From a phage, in the sequence record PZ445450.1: a stretch of DNA of 64,000 bases; one strand, written 5' to 3'. Below are positions 7,468 to 62,897 of this stretch, in pieces; the first letter of the stretch is position 1; each line of letters opens with the position of its first letter. The notes under the pieces were generated by a model. That model was not told the DNA's origin and did not search any database. It saw only the letters and a list, made by a program, of their open reading frames with translations. The position numbers and the translations under genes were made by a program.

Positions 7468-7893
7468 ATGATCTATGAAATGCCAAAACTGATTCGTGAC
7501 GATGCCCAAAACGCTCACACCATTATTATGGGCAAACGCATGGATATTATTTGTCATAAAGATTTCTGGGAAGGAAGTTACTTCACAGAGTATTTTGGTA
7601 AACTGGACAATGGTCTGCTGATCCAGTTCTACACCGATGCGGAAAACAACATTCACTGGGAGTTCGAAACTGAAGATATCCATAAACTTTTCACCTTCCT
7701 CGGTATTAAGGTTGAGGCCAAGTTTGAAGAAGGTGAGTGCGACGATTGTGGATTCTATGAGGTAACAGATTTCTACCTTCCAAGTGGTAAAAATCTCTAC
7801 TACGAAAGCCACTTCGGCAACTCAAATATGCCACAGGGTTGGGATGAGTTTTTGGAAATTGCAGAAGAGGAGCTGGAATACCGTGATTATTGA
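7468..7893 (+). CDS. hypothetical acidic protein
   Basis: ggaga RBS; 141-aa ORF. Confidence 0.5.
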   Translation: MIYEMPKLIRDDAQNAHTIIMGKRMDIICHKDFWEGSYFTEYFGKLDNGLLIQFYTDAENNIHWEFETEDIHKLFTFLGIKVEAKFEEGECDDCGFYEVTDFYLPSGKNLYYESHFGNSNMPQGWDEFLEIAEEELEYRDY

Positions 7894-8341
7894 TACTGTA
7901 AAGGGAGATCTAATCTCCATTTTCAAGAAAGGGTCAGGCCACATGATCCACGGTTGTAACTGCTTTCACACAATGGGTGCAGGTATAGCGAAAGATATTG
8001 CCCGTGAGTTCCCTCAAGCACTGGCAGCCGACAAAGAGACTGCTTATGGTAATCTAGACAAGCTGGGTATGTTTTCTTGTTGGGAGCATTTTGCCAAGGC
8101 CAGGGTCGTATATGGAATCAACCTGTATACCCAGTTCTACCCAGGGCCCAATGCTGAATACTTCTCAATCATGAAAGGTTTTGAGCGAGTCAACGAGGTA
8201 TTCAAAGGTATGTCATTGCCGTTCTACATTCCTAAAATCGGATGCGGTATTGGAGGTCTAAAGTGGGAACATGTAGAAGATGTAATTAATCTTGCAACCA
8301 CAGATATTGATGTGGTTGTAGTAGAGTACAAAAAGTGTTGA
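7883..8341 (+). CDS. macro domain protein, TARG1/OARD1-like (ADP-ribose hydrolase/deacylase family)
   Basis: VKGDLISIF...HGCNCFHTMGAGIA...PKIGCGIGGLKWEHV resembles the TARG1/OARD1 signature. GTG at 7883 chosen as start; the longer track ORF from 7784 lies inside the upstream gene. Confidence 0.7.
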   Translation: MIIDTVKGDLISIFKKGSGHMIHGCNCFHTMGAGIAKDIAREFPQALAADKETAYGNLDKLGMFSCWEHFAKARVVYGINLYTQFYPGPNAEYFSIMKGFERVNEVFKGMSLPFYIPKIGCGIGGLKWEHVEDVINLATTDIDVVVVEYKKC

Positions 8342-56022: not shown

Positions 56023-56784
56023 TTAAAGTTCCATAAAGTTTTCTACAGTTTCAATAAATGCTTTATCAGAGAAAGCGTCAACAGCACCGTTAAACCATAC
56101 AGGGATCCCGCGATCCTCATATTGATAAAGGTCGCTACGTGAAATGCCACTTCCATCTGCACTCTGCGAATCATACTTGTTTACAATCAGCAGTTTTGTG
56201 CCTTTACAAGTAGCAGGAAACAATTCCCAGTTAAAATTAATAACTGTGTTAGAACAACCTACCAGGATCACCATATCATTGCTTGTGAGAGATGTCAACA
56301 GGTCATACATGTCTGTATACTTAGGAGCAACCTCACCGAAGAACACTACATTGGGCTTAACCCAGGTATACTTGCCTGTATCTACCTCCGTGTATCCGAT
56401 ATTTTTAATTACATCATTACCTTCAGCATCTTCGTAGGTGATTTCAGGCAAATACCCGTGGACATGTAAAATATCTTCATGTTTTACACCAGCACGCTCC
56501 AGCAAATCATCTACATTGGTAGTAAGGTTGATCACACGACCAGACCAGCGGGAATACCACTCAGCGATCCGAAGATGTGCAAGGTTAGGATCAACACTGC
56601 CCAGAGCTACACGACGTGCATTGTAAAAGTCATGCACCTTATAGTAGTTCTTGGCAAAGGTGTGGATGTTGCACACCTCATCGATGCTGAAATTCTCCCA
56701 CATTGCAGTGCTACCAGATCGGAAAGTGGGAATACCAGATTCAGCGCTCAAACCAGCACCGGAGATAATAATCAGTCGTCGCAT
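56023..56784 (-). CDS. Sir2 (sirtuin) family NAD-dependent protein
   Basis: GAGLSAESGIPTFRSG, TTNVDDLLERAG, HVHGYL, PNVVFFGE sirtuin motifs; no obvious CxxC zinc ribbon. Confidence 0.8.
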   Translation of the reverse strand: MRRLIIISGAGLSAESGIPTFRSGSTAMWENFSIDEVCNIHTFAKNYYKVHDFYNARRVALGSVDPNLAHLRIAEWYSRWSGRVINLTTNVDDLLERAGVKHEDILHVHGYLPEITYEDAEGNDVIKNIGYTEVDTGKYTWVKPNVVFFGEVAPKYTDMYDLLTSLTSNDMVILVGCSNTVINFNWELFPATCKGTKLLIVNKYDSQSADGSGISRSDLYQYEDRGIPVWFNGAVDAFSDKAFIETVENFMEL

Positions 56785-56792
56785 AAGTGTCC

Positions 56793-57143
56793 TCAGTAGA
56801 TGTTTTGTTTAATCTCTATTCCAAACTTCTTGAATGAGTCAGCAGCAAGCATAAATTTACGAGCTGCCGATGGATTAGAAGTATGCACGAAAATAATCAC
56901 GTTGTCAATAAGTGGTGGCTTTCCGAATACAAGTTTCTCCTCTAGCGCAGAGAAGCAGTCGTACCCTTCAAGCACTTCACCTAGATCATTGTCAAAATGC
57001 CACTCAGAAACGCTCCTGTAGAGCTTTCTATTATCGTTAATAAAATCCATGAACTCAGAAGAGTTCTTCAGCCAAAGAGCATCTTGGATTCCGTAATTTG
57101 ACGGATCTCTCAAGTCATCTAGCCACACAATCAACTTCTTCAT
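56793..57143 (-). CDS. hypothetical protein
   Basis: Internal ATG (MKKLIVWLDD) forms ATGA overlap with the RNA ligase stop. Confidence 0.45.
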   Translation of the reverse strand: MKKLIVWLDDLRDPSNYGIQDALWLKNSSEFMDFINDNRKLYRSVSEWHFDNDLGEVLEGYDCFSALEEKLVFGKPPLIDNVIIFVHTSNPSAARKFMLAADSFKKFGIEIKQNIY

Positions 57144-58075
57144 TGCATATAGTCCTCGTTGTGAAAATAGCAATCAAGTATCTCACGGCGTTCCTGCTCC
57201 AGGAGGCAGTTCCACACATCTTCTGTGTAATTGCTACGAATGAAGTTTACCATGCCATAAAACTCTTCGTCAATACGTTTAAAGATATCATCATCCCAAA
57301 TCTTCCAAGCTTTACCCCTCATTACGGCCTTCCGTGCCAAATAGTATGGAGACTTGATCTTCAGCTGCAGGTCATAAGGGTAGTAAGGCTTACGGATCAT
57401 ATACCCTTCGCCCCTTGTTTCTGCAGCTAATTCTTTTGCATAGCTGAACGGGATTTCACGCACAGTGTGAGGACGTTTTGCACCAAGGTATTTGGCAATT
57501 CCATCTAAAGCTGCTTCTGGTAGCATTATTCCAGAATCATTATATCTGCAACCTATCAAATATGCGCCATGGTCTTCTTGAACAATATGCGGATCTGAAG
57601 GGTGACAAATTTCAAACATGAATGTCATGTTTTCATTGCCCATAACCTTCTTGATAAGATCTAAATTACCACATTGCTCTTGGATGGTTTCCTTTGCAAG
57701 GTTACAATATGGAGAATCAAGAGACCCGGTTGTTGAGAACAATAGGTCACCTTTATGAGATGATACCACACCAAGGAATCCGTTCTTTTTCTCTACCGCA
57801 GTCACAAGCTTATTGTCAGGCAGGTTGGTGGAGTTTTCTCCCAAGTTAAACACTTTTGTGAAGGGCCATGCCACAACATTTCCTTCATTACCTACAACAA
57901 TGCCTCGGCACTCCAGTAAACGAGGGGACAAATGCCATAAATTGTTGTAAAATACTTTTCTAGCATATTTATAGATCTTTAACCCGAGATCTGGGTAATA
58001 CCTACTGGTTACAAGACCTTTGTCAACTAGGTCGTCTGCATTAAAATACTTCATCATACGTTCCTCATTTGTCAT
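57140..58075 (-). CDS. RNA ligase-like nucleotidyltransferase (Rnl family, putative)
   Basis: Motif I EKKNGF, motif IV EGYMIRK, motif V LKIKSPYY; divergent from kinase/phosphoesterase genes. Confidence 0.6.
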   Translation of the reverse strand: MTNEERMMKYFNADDLVDKGLVTSRYYPDLGLKIYKYARKVFYNNLWHLSPRLLECRGIVVGNEGNVVAWPFTKVFNLGENSTNLPDNKLVTAVEKKNGFLGVVSSHKGDLLFSTTGSLDSPYCNLAKETIQEQCGNLDLIKKVMGNENMTFMFEICHPSDPHIVQEDHGAYLIGCRYNDSGIMLPEAALDGIAKYLGAKRPHTVREIPFSYAKELAAETRGEGYMIRKPYYPYDLQLKIKSPYYLARKAVMRGKAWKIWDDDIFKRIDEEFYGMVNFIRSNYTEDVWNCLLEQERREILDCYFHNEDYMQ

Positions 58076-58118
58076 TTTGTCAGTCTATCCTGTCACACAA
58101 ATAACCTAGTGTCAACAC

Positions 58119-58147
58119 TTGAAATTAACAAAACAGTTAGATATACT
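58119..58147 (+). promoter_or_regulatory. sigma70-like promoter (TTGAAA-N17-TATACT) in divergent intergenic region
   Basis: -35 58119-58124, -10 58142-58147. Confidence 0.5.
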
Positions 58148-58175
58148 ATCGTTGAAATTAAAACGGAGGGTCACT

Positions 58176-58586
58176 ATGTCTAAAATGCTATATATCGTGC
58201 GTGGTCTACCAGGGTCTGGCAAATCAACACTGGCAAATGCGCTATCTTTAGAGGGTCTGTATCCACATTTTGAGAAAGACATGTTCTGGTATGACGATGA
58301 CGGCAATTACAACTGGGATGCAAGTAAAGTAACACTCGCAGCGAAATGGTGCAAAGATAACGTAGAAGATATGATGCGTATGGGATACGACCGTATCGTG
58401 GTAAGTAATACGTTTACAAAAGAAAAACATGTGCAGGAATATGTTGACATGGCAATCAGTCATGGGTATAGTTATACCGTGATCGTGGTTGAAAACCGCC
58501 ACGGTAATAAAAGCATTCATGATGTTCCAGACAAGGTTGTGGATCGTATGGAACGCCAGCTTAAAAACTGCATTAAACTTAAATGA
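58176..58586 (+). CDS. polynucleotide kinase-like P-loop kinase
   Basis: ggaggg RBS; MLYIVRGLPGSGKSTLA Walker A at extreme N-terminus, as in Pnk kinase domains. Confidence 0.65.
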   Translation: MSKMLYIVRGLPGSGKSTLANALSLEGLYPHFEKDMFWYDDDGNYNWDASKVTLAAKWCKDNVEDMMRMGYDRIVVSNTFTKEKHVQEYVDMAISHGYSYTVIVVENRHGNKSIHDVPDKVVDRMERQLKNCIKLK

Positions 58587-58593
58587 GGAATGT

Positions 58594-59148
58594 ATGAAAT
58601 ACTTTGTAACAAGCGACACACACTTTCTCCACCAGCGGGTCATGGAGTTTGATTCATGTCAAAAACACAGATCTCAGTATGATCACAATCTTGACAGTAT
58701 GAATGCGGGAATCATCGCCGAATGGAACTCTGTTGTGTCACCTGCAGACACTGTGTTCCACTTGGGAGATATTGCGTGCACTAATGATAAGAATATCAAC
58801 AACTTACTTCCAGATATTCTAAATATGTTGAACGGACATATTATTCTTGTTCGTGGCAACCATGACACAAGGACGACTGTCAGAATTATGAAAGAGTTCG
58901 GTCATGAGGTTGTAGATTATTACGAGCTTCGCCACAACAAGAATTTGATCTGTATGAGCCATTACCAATTTGCAAAGTGGAACAGAAAGCCTCACGGATC
59001 AGTCCAACTGTTCGGTCATGCTCACGGAACCACACAACAGTTGTTTGGCAGGCAGCTTGATGTCGGTTGGGATGTGTGGGGGAGACTCTTACCATTAGAA
59101 GAGGCATACCGTATTGCAATGAGTTTTGCTATTGACAGCGGGGAGTAA
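58594..59148 (+). CDS. calcineurin-like metallophosphoesterase
   Basis: SDTHF, GDI, VRGNHD, GHAH motifs; gagg RBS before internal ATG. Confidence 0.7.
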   Translation: MKYFVTSDTHFLHQRVMEFDSCQKHRSQYDHNLDSMNAGIIAEWNSVVSPADTVFHLGDIACTNDKNINNLLPDILNMLNGHIILVRGNHDTRTTVRIMKEFGHEVVDYYELRHNKNLICMSHYQFAKWNRKPHGSVQLFGHAHGTTQQLFGRQLDVGWDVWGRLLPLEEAYRIAMSFAIDSGE

Positions 59149-61989: not shown

Positions 61990-62085
61990 AATATTTTCTT
62001 GACAAACTTTGCCTAACAGTGTAATATTATAAACATGGTCTCCCACCTTTTCTGGCGGCTCAGGTGTAAAAGAAAGCCACCCAGT

Positions 62086-62160
62086 GCCCTGTTAGCTTAG
62101 TGGATAAAGCAGCGGCCTTCTAAGCCGTTGACACTGGTTCGAGTCCAGTACGGGGTGCCA
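62086..62160 (+). tRNA. tRNA-Arg (anticodon UCU)
   Basis: Cloverleaf folded by hand: acceptor gccctgt/acggggt (one G-U), anticodon loop CUUCUAA, T-loop TTCGAGT, CCA encoded. Confidence 0.8.
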
Positions 62161-62164
62161 AATT

Positions 62165-62251
62165 GGGGAGTTATCCCGTAGAGGTAGCGGTGTAGACTGT
62201 AAATCTATTGTCATTGCGACTCGGGTGGTTCGACTCCACCACTCCCCACCA
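62165..62251 (+). tRNA. tRNA-Tyr (anticodon GUA), class II
   Basis: Acceptor ggggagt/actcccc, anticodon loop CUGUAAA, long variable arm, T-loop TTCGACT, CCA encoded. Confidence 0.75.
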
Positions 62252-62365
62252 AATTTATATTTTTAAATGCATAAATCATACAGATAATGACATTGATATT
62301 TATCGTCGTTTATACTAGTCACTAACTGCTCGAAAATCAGTGTCATTATCAGTGTAATTTATAAA

Positions 62366-62456
62366 GGAGGGTAGGGAGCAATGGTGCTCAAGCGGTCTTG
62401 AAAACCGTCCCGTTGAGGATGACTCGATGATGGTTCGATTCCATTACTCTCCGCCA
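62366..62456 (+). tRNA. tRNA-Ser (anticodon UGA), class II
   Basis: Acceptor ggagggt/actctcc, anticodon loop CUUGAAA, long variable arm, T-loop TTCGATT, CCA encoded. Confidence 0.75.
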
Positions 62457-62554
62457 CATTGTTGACCTTGTAATTAAGCGAAAGCCGGAAGCAGAACCGG
62501 ATTATCAAATGTTACAGTCGTCATCGCCGACTAGCCACATGGTCAACATATTGC

Positions 62555-62653
62555 GCTAGGTAAGCCCTTTGGCAAGGGCGAGGATTTTTAATCCTGAAAA
62601 TAGACGAGGTAGTCGTTGAATACATAGGTGGTTCGATTCCATCACCTAGCACC
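62555..62653 (+). tRNA. aberrant tRNA-like gene (candidate Lys-UUU-like anticodon loop; ~30-nt insertion before T-arm)
   Basis: Acceptor gctaggt/acctagc, D-arm gccc-tttggcaa-gggc, T-arm ggtgg-ttcgatt-ccatc. Anticodon region aggatttttaatcct gives UUUUUAA loop only with a 4-bp stem; ~30 nt lie between it and the T-arm; 3' CC only. Confidence 0.45.
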
Positions 62654-62657
62654 TTTT

Positions 62658-62733
62658 GCTGATGTAGCACAATTGGCAGTGCAATTGATTTGTAATCAAT
62701 AGGTTGCAGGTTCAAGTCCTGCCATCAGCACCA
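62658..62733 (+). tRNA. tRNA-Thr (anticodon UGU)
   Basis: Acceptor gctgatg/catcagc, D-stem gcac/gtgc, anticodon loop UUUGUAA, T-loop TTCAAGT, CCA encoded. Confidence 0.8.
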
Positions 62734-62734
62734 T

Positions 62735-62809
62735 GGCCCTGTAGCTGGAAGGTTCAAGCAAGCGACTCATAATCGCCAGACGGTGGTTCAATTCCACCCA
62801 GGGCCACCA
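62735..62809 (+). tRNA. tRNA-Met (anticodon CAU; elongator Met or Ile2 lysidine type)
   Basis: Acceptor ggccctg/cagggcc with G1-C72, anticodon loop CUCAUAA, T-loop TTCAATT, CCA encoded. Confidence 0.7.
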
Positions 62810-62820
62810 AATAATAAATA

Positions 62821-62897
62821 CTCCGCGTAGCTCAGCTTGGTAGAGCGCCTGATTTGGGATCAGGAGGTCGAGTGTTCGAATCACTCCGTGGAGACCA
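62821..62897 (+). tRNA. tRNA-Pro (anticodon UGG)
   Basis: C1-G72 acceptor typical of tRNA-Pro, anticodon loop UUUGGGA, T-loop TTCGAAT, CCA encoded. Confidence 0.8.

Follow-up and report, generated by a model that had tools for sequence, protein, structure and literature searches.

What is the odd 99-nt gene that sits among the tRNA genes of a Vequintavirus (rV5-like coliphage)? The stretch analyzed here, referred to as the window, comprises 64,000 nt of sequence record PZ445450.1. At positions 62555-62653 of its plus strand, between tRNA-Ser(UGA) (62366-62456) and tRNA-Thr(UGU) (62658-62733), it carries a gene whose RNA folds into a cloverleaf with good acceptor, D, and T arms, as the initial annotation had described it. 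That annotation left three options, a divergent tRNA-Lys, a tRNA with an insertion, and a non-decoding tRNA-like RNA. We report that the tRNA-like gene is a real RNA structure under selection and that such RNAs, with an anticodon arm shorter and more variable than an ordinary decoding tRNA would allow, form a conserved, phage-only, previously undescribed family of tRNA-shaped RNAs; structure and family are established beyond reasonable doubt. As for its role, we favor, with a probability of about 0.45, the reading that the element is a functional member of this phage-specific family and acts as a non-decoding tRNA mimic that engages a tRNA-binding factor, most plausibly a tRNA-directed defense enzyme.

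The gene folds into a cloverleaf with a short anticodon arm

The full RNA reads GCUAGGU-AA-GCCCUUUGGCAAGGGC-G-AGGAUUUUUAAUCCU-G-AAAAUAG-ACGAGGUAGUCGU-UGAAUACAUA-GGUGGUUCGAUUCCAUC-ACCUAGC-A-CC (its parts are given in Table 1). ARAGORN places a gene on exactly 62555-62653 and labels it "tRNA-??? (atcc)." The covariance-model scan that the initial annotation had proposed was run with the Rfam tRNA model (RF00005), which matches 62555-62651 with 35.5 bits and thereby exceeds its gathering score of 29; four neighboring tRNAs matched by the same model score 60 to 77 bits, and alignment of the tRNA-like gene requires a 26-nt insertion in the variable region and a deletion of anticodon-stem position 27. 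Energy minimization gives a cloverleaf (−34.2 kcal/mol, z = −3.66), and none of 200 shuffled sequences was as stable. In this fold, the anticodon region (AGGATTTTTAATCCT) zips to a hairpin of 6 bp with a 3-nt loop, in agreement with the initial annotation, which had seen it close to a short-loop stem, and the variable region gains an extra hairpin. The 4-bp AGGA/UCCU stem, which goes with the 7-nt UUUUUAA loop named there as a second possibility, covaries across 28 homologues (A-U/G-C, plus U-A/C-G at the fourth pair). The fold behind the ARAGORN call (AUUUU/AAAAU stem, 8-nt loop, anticodon AUCC) was rejected; it is broken by a T-to-A change in the homologue of phage Av-05 and is impossible in other genera.

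The 7-bp acceptor stem, 5-bp T stem, 7-nt T loop, and elbow pairs of a canonical tRNA are all present, and all covary. Other features depart from the canonical plan. An invariant A8 stands where the near-universal U8 of tRNAs is expected, and the variable region, 4 to 5 nt long in class I and about 10 to 24 nt in class II tRNAs, measures 30 nt in the window (62597-62626, between the G at 62596 and the T stem), the length that the initial annotation had estimated, and up to 40 nt in relatives. The plan of this region is constant: an A-rich linker (AAAA...), a lineage-specific, always-paired hairpin, and a second linker ending in invariant AUACAUA. The linkers, of 7 and 9 to 10 nt, are unpaired and conserved, and the 5′ one is single-stranded in all folds; we know of no canonical tRNA with a 9- to 10-nt single strand at the place of the 3′ linker. 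The hairpin between them reads ACGG-GCUAG-CCGU in Av-05 and CCCUCC...GGGAGG in PVP-SE1, and in Mydovirus and Henunavirus it is GCC or GUC around the loop GAACUAACAGUAC. In the D arm, a stem of 6 bp with a 4-nt loop is predicted from energy only, since its two U-A pairs never vary; the UU/AA bases could form this tRNA-Sec-like 6-bp stem or the swapped tertiary pairs A8-U14 and U15-A48. At the 3′ end, the gene encodes A and CC and is followed by TTTT, so that the CC end noted initially is correct, whereas all six canonical tRNAs of the cluster encode CCA.

The element belongs to a conserved, phage-only RNA family

BLAST and motif scans yielded 28 distinct sequences from five Vequintavirinae genera and metagenomes. 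Besides Vequintavirus, members come from Avunavirus (Av-05), Seunavirus (PVP-SE1, SSE121, KE22, GAP31, 4MG, and Cronobacter phages), Mydovirus (BIS47, NDO71, VLCpiM5b, and others), Henunavirus (Hena1 and pEp_SNUABM_01), and several metagenomic contigs. There is one copy per phage, and every homologue is packed 2 to 6 nt from some canonical tRNA. An additional copy lies in the tRNA cluster of the N4-like Schitoviridae Salmonella phage vB_SenP_UTK0002, next to other tRNAs, indicating that the element has moved between unrelated phage families. A conserved 21-nt motif of the family was searched for in 185,579 bacterial and archaeal species, each represented by a single genome, and gave no match; a bacterial ancestor and prophage copies were rejected because the motif is absent from these genome contigs.

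We built a family covariance model, R1, from the alignment, leaving the N4-like copy out of the training set. Every member scores 90 to 117 bits, the N4-like copy included, with 104.6 bits for the window copy, and the ordinary tRNAs of the same loci, those adjoining the element in the window included, reach at most 29 bits. We found no Rfam entry describing the family; when seven loci with six family members were scanned with Rfam, four members were unreported at an E value of ≤0.01, and two type-B members (see below) had only subthreshold tRNA-Sec scores of 37.6 to 41.9 bits.

In the 28-sequence alignment, we scored 23 pairs. Standard pairing is found in 99.8% of cells, and 12 of the 23 pairs carry changes in both partners (78 cells). 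Values this high were not obtained in any of 500 shuffles, and partners slid out of register pair at 36 to 49%. The elbow pair 19:56 (G19 at 62572, C56 at 62634) occurs as GC in 18 sequences and as UA in the other 10, with no unpaired case. The D loop UGGC or UGGU always occurs with the T loop UUCGAUU, and UGUC always occurs with UUAGAUU; this exceptionless covariation argues that the tRNA elbow is being maintained. Compensatory changes distinguish the window copy from Av-05 at two places, acceptor pair 4:69 and the variable hairpin, and the variants within Vequintavirus (A9G, U-A to U-G, and G-U to G-C) all keep the structure.

Conservation is far higher in the core than around it, and across the family the body and the two linkers hardly vary. 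BLAST of the window locus against Av-05 or 24-2-1 aligns only the tRNA-like core (query 16-111, ∼93% identity) and not the flanks, and among Mydovirus copies the element differs at 1 to 4 of 108 positions and the flanks by 8 to 50%. Together with the pairing and the 12 double-changed pairs, this is not the pattern of a pseudogene whose structure is free of selection. The tRNA with an insertion, one of the three initial options, does not hold, as the long variable region and the short arm are common to all 28 homologues, with conserved linkers and an always-paired hairpin. A sequencing error was likewise rejected, as homologues from independent isolates and metagenomes have the same architecture.

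Anticodon loops and 3′ ends differ between phage lineages

The anticodon arm measures 14 to 16 nt in all 28 homologues, compared to 17 nt in a canonical tRNA, with a 4-bp stem and loops of 6, 7, or 8 nt; it is flanked by a 5′ G in every member and a 3′ G in nearly all. The 5-bp stem with 7-nt loop of canonical tRNAs is thus not a conserved property of the orthologues. The loop is UUUUUAA in Vequintavirus, where the arm is unchanged in six of six distinct variants recovered, and UUUAUAA in Avunavirus. In Seunavirus and Mydovirus it is C-CNNCCA-G, which has 8 nt, or 6 nt when the C-G pair is closed. Henunavirus, the N4-like phage, and several metagenomic phages have YAUCAAA, with A33, which annotators call tRNA-Sup(tca), and contig L032 has GUGAUA. 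These lineage-specific loops make a family without a constant anticodon, in which most genera have no decoding-competent loop.

The N positions of the CNNCCA type vary (AU, AG, CA, CG, CU, and UU) and are the main differences among otherwise near-identical copies. Because the flanks of the phages compared are so diverged (8 to 50%), these positions look unconstrained, and in this they appear unlike the wobble or position-33 base of a decoder; with the same divergence in the flanks, positive selection on the two bases is unsupported. The 3′ ends differ as well: Vequintavirus variants end in A-CC or A-CA, Avunavirus copies in U-ACA or C-ACA, and other genera in U73-CCA, so that A73 is confined to Vequintavirus within the family. 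The arm of 14 to 16 nt, the lineage-specific loops, the variable N positions, and a discriminator (A, U, or C) and 3′ end (CC, CA, or ACA) that are not fixed in the Vequintavirus/Avunavirus clade make decoding unlikely as a function common to the family. Among the initial options, the non-decoding tRNA-like RNA therefore appears best supported for the family as a whole by the sequence comparison; what such an RNA would do is considered below.

The gene has also been lost in nature. Phages V18 and O157 typing phage 4 lost it when the T arm of tRNA-Tyr recombined with that of the element. In the resulting fusions, tRNA-Tyr contributes the 5′ part and the tRNA-like gene the 3′ part (V18, 1452-1543 of locus L004; O157 typing phage 4, ∼640-727 of locus L051), tRNA-Ser and both structured spacers are gone, and the acceptor stem is left mismatched.

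Relationship to tRNA-Lys and other known RNAs

In its anticodon arm, the Vequintavirus copy resembles tRNA-Lys. From A31 to C40, position 32 excepted, its arm equals that of E. coli tRNA-Lys(UUU), a sequence that we checked against 5,426 genomes, and its 7-nt loop carries U33, UUU, A37, and A38, which are all hallmarks of the Lys anticodon loop, in combination with A73. UUU and A73 are the identity elements of E. coli LysRS. The window copy has this tRNA-Lys(UUU) identity set, which is not conserved in the orthologues of other genera (UAU with U73 or C73 in Avunavirus and CNNCCA, YAUCAAA, or GUGAUA elsewhere). The divergent tRNA-Lys of the initial annotation thus keeps some probability for this genus: UUU, U33, A37, A73, and the host-like arm speak for it, and the UAU with U73 or C73 of the sister genus, the 6- or 8-nt loops or A33 of the other genera, and the missing encoded CCA weaken it. 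Canonical tRNA-Lys(UUU), including the tRNA-Lys of phage T5 (PMC11464382, PMC12409363), shares with the element the 7-bp acceptor stem, the 5-bp T stem, a T-psi-C-type loop, the G18/G19-C56 elbow, and a site in a phage tRNA cluster, in addition to the loop, discriminator, and arm features just named. The element differs from it in having an anticodon stem of 4 rather than 5 bp, A8 rather than U8, a variable region of 30 rather than 5 nt, and no encoded CCA, and its orthologues in other genera lack UUU or the 7-nt U33 loop. For the CNNCCA type, GlyRS identity (U73, G1:C72, C2:G71, and C35/C36) is a lead only; G3:C70 is never present, and the idea is inapplicable to the window copy.

With class II tRNAs and tRNA-Sec (RF01852), the element has in common a long variable arm with a hairpin and a D arm compatible with a 6-bp stem and a 4-nt loop, and the type-B relatives have a UCA-containing loop and the tRNA-Sec scores mentioned above, which lie below the gathering threshold of 47. 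However, the helices of the element are 7/5 rather than 8/5, its anticodon stem is shorter, its discriminator is U73 or A73 rather than G73, the window copy has UUU, and the variable hairpin is set off by the 7- and 9- to 10-nt linkers. Membership in tRNA-Sec (8/5 helices, UCA, G73, and at least 47 bits) was therefore rejected, and the window copy best fits the tRNA model.

The tRNA gene cluster of phage T4 also encodes RNAs C and D ("species 1 and 2"), which are small and stable, are not tRNAs, and are transcribed and processed together with the phage tRNAs; T4 has the tRNA-repair genes Pnkp and Rnl1 as well. Unlike the element, RNAs C and D are not known to be full cloverleaves with a covarying elbow. 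The tRNA-like domain of the Y-RNA YrlA is encoded beside the Salmonella rtcBA RNA-repair operon, and YrlA and the element are thus both encoded near RNA-repair genes. Bacillus cereus tRNA-Other is a chromosomal, non-translating tRNA-like RNA (PMC3399842). What tRNA-Other and YrlA share with the element is the mimicry of the cloverleaf or L-shape, with T arm and elbow kept and, in the reading of the element that we favor, no decoding; they are chromosomal and have other architectures, and YrlA has a Ro-binding helix in place of the anticodon arm. The sole Rfam YrlA match in the window (25 bits over tRNA-Met/Pro) is spurious.

Possible functions of the element

Host tRNA-Lys(UUU) is a reported target of PARIS/AriB and PrrC (PMC12409363) and of bacterial Schlafen (PMC13056530). 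Phage T5 tRNA-Lys neutralizes PARIS (PMC11464382, PMC12409363), and the possibility that viral tRNAs are competitive AriB inhibitors has been raised (PMC12409363). In the source phage, a set of RNA-repair genes (57143-59145) lies 3.4 to 5.4 kb upstream of the element. Because host tRNA-Lys(UUU) is targeted by defense systems and RNA-repair genes are found near the element, tRNA breakage is a relevant pressure for this phage.

In the reading that we favor, the element would be co-transcribed with the phage tRNAs from an early sigma-70-type promoter, released by RNase P and 3′ trimming like its neighbors, and folded into the tRNA L-shape with the D-loop/T-loop elbow intact. The RNA would then present an anticodon arm one pair short and a family-specific variable domain of two single-stranded linkers around a hairpin, and it would tie up some factor that binds tRNA, most plausibly a nuclease or toxin of the tRNA-directed defense of the host. 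In Vequintavirus, the arm would copy the distal arm of host tRNA-Lys(UUU) on a body that the enzyme cannot process productively. Transcription, processing, the absence of decoding, and the protein partner of the RNA are all parts of this scheme that we infer. A bolder form of the idea, which we consider doubtful, is that of a mobile RNA-only anti-defense module, whose invariant body and linkers dock on tRNA-targeting nucleases or toxins and whose short arm sets which enzyme is blocked. If true, rV5-like myoviruses and N4-like podoviruses would share a non-coding RNA that is the first of its kind, a dedicated decoy against the tRNA-directed immunity of bacteria.

Several observations weigh against a mimic. 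The loop types track phage lineage and not host, with CNNCCA in the E. coli phage 4MG and both CNNCCA and YAUCAAA in Salmonella phages, which weakens host-specific mimicry by loop type. In Vequintavirus, no feature of a decoding Lys loop is missing, A73 is present in addition, and tRNAscan-SE-based annotation calls the gene tRNA-Lys. The host has about six copies of tRNA-Lys genes, which a decoy would have to outcompete. A specific coupling between the element and the RNA-repair cassette is unsupported, as homologues of the ligase are found not only in Vequintavirinae but also in phi92-like and many other phages, and V18 has retained the ligase after losing the element.

The most serious of the rival explanations, although in our view an unlikely one, is that the RNA is a working but unorthodox tRNA-Lys(UUU), which is charged by LysRS, reads AAA/AAG, and sustains translation once host tRNA-Lys(UUU) has been cut. 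Its odd D arm, short stem, and large variable domain would hide it from nucleases, in the manner of T5 tRNA-Lys versus PARIS, for which there is the T5 precedent (PMC11464382). The complete loop, the LysRS identity set with an A73 found in this genus alone, the constancy of the arm across the Vequintavirus variants, the Rfam tRNA threshold exceeded, and the tRNA-Lys annotation in BASEL phages all favor this. A UUU anticodon would also suit the cluster, where, according to the ARAGORN anticodons, five of the six other tRNAs have U34 and read A-ending codons. After the anticodon, the phage RNA has UAAUC-C where the host tRNA has UAAUC-A, the site cut by AriB; this is a change of the A41C type, which substantially inhibits AriB cleavage, and the D loop of the element is quite different from the D loop in which AriB also reads U16-U17 (PMC12409363). 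However, the adjacent phage tRNA-Thr retains the host-type UAAUCA site, and protection from AriB is therefore not a general trait of the cluster. The RNA moreover has only four Watson-Crick anticodon-stem pairs, or else lacks nucleotide 26, it combines A8 with a 30-nt variable region not known from any tRNA-Lys, it does not encode the CCA that all its neighbors encode, and the gene was lost from V18 and O157 typing phage 4. Since Avunavirus, the sister genus, combines UAU with U73 or C73 and likewise lacks CCA, and other genera carry non-decoding loops on the same scaffold, Lys decoding cannot be the conserved function.

An improbable alternative is that the element is a cis-acting module of the tRNA precursor, serving as a tRNA-shaped handle for RNase P and 3′ exonucleases or protecting the transcript, and idle once released. 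Its invariable closeness to a canonical tRNA (2 to 6 nt) would fit, as would the two further conserved structured spacers in the same operon and the fact that function in the Vequintavirus/Avunavirus clade seems independent of loop, discriminator, and CCA; yet the neighboring tRNAs have RNase P determinants of their own, invariant linkers and 19:56 covariation exceed the needs of a processing handle, and in the N4-like phage the element has moved to another tRNA cluster with different neighbors. Still less probable is that the Vequintavirus copy is a decaying, non-functional relic of an ancestral tRNA-like gene. The loss of CCA and U73, the shorter variable hairpin, the natural deletion variants, and an A/U-rich loop, as drift predicts in a region of 43 to 46% G+C, could be read in this way, but Vequintavirus and Avunavirus differ by compensatory double changes, which affect 4:69 and the variable stem, every within-genus variant preserves the structure, and the core aligns without its flanks (∼93% identity), all of which argues otherwise. 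A recoding tRNA is very improbable. It would act in frameshifting or stop suppression, by slippage on A-AAA-AAG-type sites in the window phage and by UGA suppression (UCA loop) or quadruplet reading (8-nt loop) in other genera, consistent with the tRNA-Sup(tca) label of type-B members and with type-A members drawable with an 8-nt loop like the frameshift suppressors sufD and SufJ. Against it, A or a variable base stands at position 33, the two central positions of the type-A loop appear unconstrained, and the loop closes equally to 6 nt through the C-G pair.

Annotation of the gene and significance

In GenBank, the gene is labeled tRNA-Lys, tRNA-OTHER, tRNA-TERM, or "tRNA-???(atcc)," and elsewhere it is unannotated or covered by a hypothetical-protein coding sequence (CDS). 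The rV5 genome paper gives six tRNAs and leaves the tRNA-like gene out (PMC3606486), and the RNA is undescribed in the rV5 genome, BASEL, PARIS, and Schlafen papers, a review of non-canonical tRNAs, and a survey of viral structured RNAs. With such mixed labels, phage tRNA counts and inferences on codon supply and suppressors in these phages are unreliable, and rV5-like, PVP-SE1-like, and BASEL phages are in wide use for phage therapy, biocontrol, and defense-system screens. One mobile, phage-only family with a defined architecture gives a handle on the purpose of non-tRNA RNAs in phage tRNA operons. If the element is a decoder, it extends the structural limits of functional bacterial tRNAs; if it is a mimic, it adds RNA-based counter-defense to the tRNA arms race.

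Genomic context and neighboring structures

The coordinates of the element and of features in its surroundings are collected in Table 1. The segment 62300-62900 (601 nt of the cluster) is 100% identical to BASEL phage EmilHeitz (Bas49), and the region is also identical in ECP32 and other Vequintavirus coliphages. The promoter-like site upstream of tRNA-Arg would drive transcription of the cluster.

TABLE 1 Parts of the tRNA-like RNA and features in its genomic surroundings (positions in the window)
Feature	Position	Strand	Description
Rnl1-type RNA ligase	57143-58075	−	PF09511, E = 1e-14; Bas49 annotation, RNA ligase
P-loop kinase	58176-58583	+	AAA_33; Bas49 annotation, polynucleotide kinase
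Metallophosphoesterase (calcineurin-like)	58594-59145	+	Bas49 annotation, phosphoesterase
Sigma-70-type promoter-like site, TTGACA-17-TAATAT	61999-62027	+	10 of 12 consensus matches; 59 nt upstream of tRNA-Arg
tRNA cluster	62086-62897	+	Arg(UCU), Tyr(GUA), Ser(UGA), tRNA-like RNA, Thr(UGU), Met/Ile2(CAU), Pro(UGG); ARAGORN and Rfam
Acceptor stem, 5′ strand, GCTAGGT	62555-62561	+	7 bp with 62644-62650; 5 of 7 pairs compensatory, 100% of cells paired (28 homologues)
Linker A8-A9	62562-62563	+	A8 invariant in 28 of 28; position 9 is A or G
D arm, GCCC-UU-UGGC-AA-GGGC	62564-62579	+	3 of 4 outer pairs covary; UU/AA invariant
G at junction of D stem and anticodon stem (position 26 or 27)	62580	+	Invariant column G26
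Short "anticodon" arm, AGGA-UUUUUAA-UCCU	62581-62595	+	15 nt, 4 Watson-Crick pairs, 7-nt loop
G44 and 5′ linker AAAAUAG of variable region	62596-62603	+	A43-A46 of the RNA (62597-62600) invariant; G42 (62596) at least 90% conserved
Variable-arm hairpin, ACGA-GGUAG-UCGU	62604-62616	+	Hairpin in every homologue; sequence and length differ
3′ linker, UGAAUACAUA	62617-62626	+	AUACAUA (A66-A72 of the first sequence) invariant in 28 of 28
T arm, GGUGG-UUCGAUU-CCAUC	62627-62643	+	5 pairs, 100% paired; one compensatory (U-A/C-G), one G-U/G-C
Acceptor 3′ strand ACCTAGC, discriminator A73, and CC	62644-62653	+	A76 not encoded

Two spacers of the cluster are structured. The 98-nt spacer that separates tRNA-Ser from the tRNA-like gene holds a conserved structured RNA of its own (62459-62548, plus strand; RNAalifold, −24.2). 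Its closing helix UGUUGACC/GGUCAACA changes in a compensatory manner to GAGGAUC/GAUCCUU and GUGGAUC/GAUUCGC in other Vequintaviruses, and it encloses two invariant hairpins, CCGG-AAGCAGAA-CCGG and AGUCG-UCAUCGC-CGACU. The spacer between tRNA-Tyr and tRNA-Ser (∼62281-62355, plus strand) contains a long hairpin, GAUAAUGACAUUGAU...AUCAGUGUCAUUAUC, which in locus L044 shows the compensatory changes GACA to GGUA and UGUC to UACC; this spacer also holds a promoter-like ATGACA-18-TATACT.

The CAU tRNA (62735-62809, plus strand) is Met according to ARAGORN and tRNA-Ile (AUA) according to the BASEL annotation, a label that implies lysidine modification. In phage YP-6, a 342-nt open reading frame (ORF) lies inside the D-stem/anticodon-stem region of tRNA-Pro (∼645-1000 of locus L052) and encodes a hypothetical, Cys/His-rich protein that is HNH-like by eye. 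At the same place in tRNA-Pro, V18 has a scar-like ATAAACCA (∼1735-1750 of locus L004) for CGCCTGAT (∼62838-62845 in the window). A Sir2-domain protein is encoded beside the RNA-repair set (56026-56784, minus strand).

Further unusual tRNA-like sequences were observed in phages that carry the element. Seunaviruses have a second aberrant tRNA just upstream of it, annotated as Ile or Arg (1419-1494 of locus L001 and 1418-1494 of locus L002); its loop is ACGAUUC with C33 in KE22, and in EspYZU15 it has 8 nt and is labeled "???(agat)." Downstream in Seunaviruses (∼1620-1790 of L001) lies a conserved region of ∼170 to 190 nt that looks like a tRNA with a large D-loop insertion. The cluster of the N4-like phage UTK0002 contains a tRNA-like remnant (∼1240-1322 of locus L049) with acceptor UGAUGAG/CUCAUCA, a good T arm, and no ARAGORN call. 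A metagenomic phage with a YAUCAAA element encodes a CUA-anticodon tRNA (7862-7934 of locus L035), which ARAGORN calls "tRNA-Pyl."

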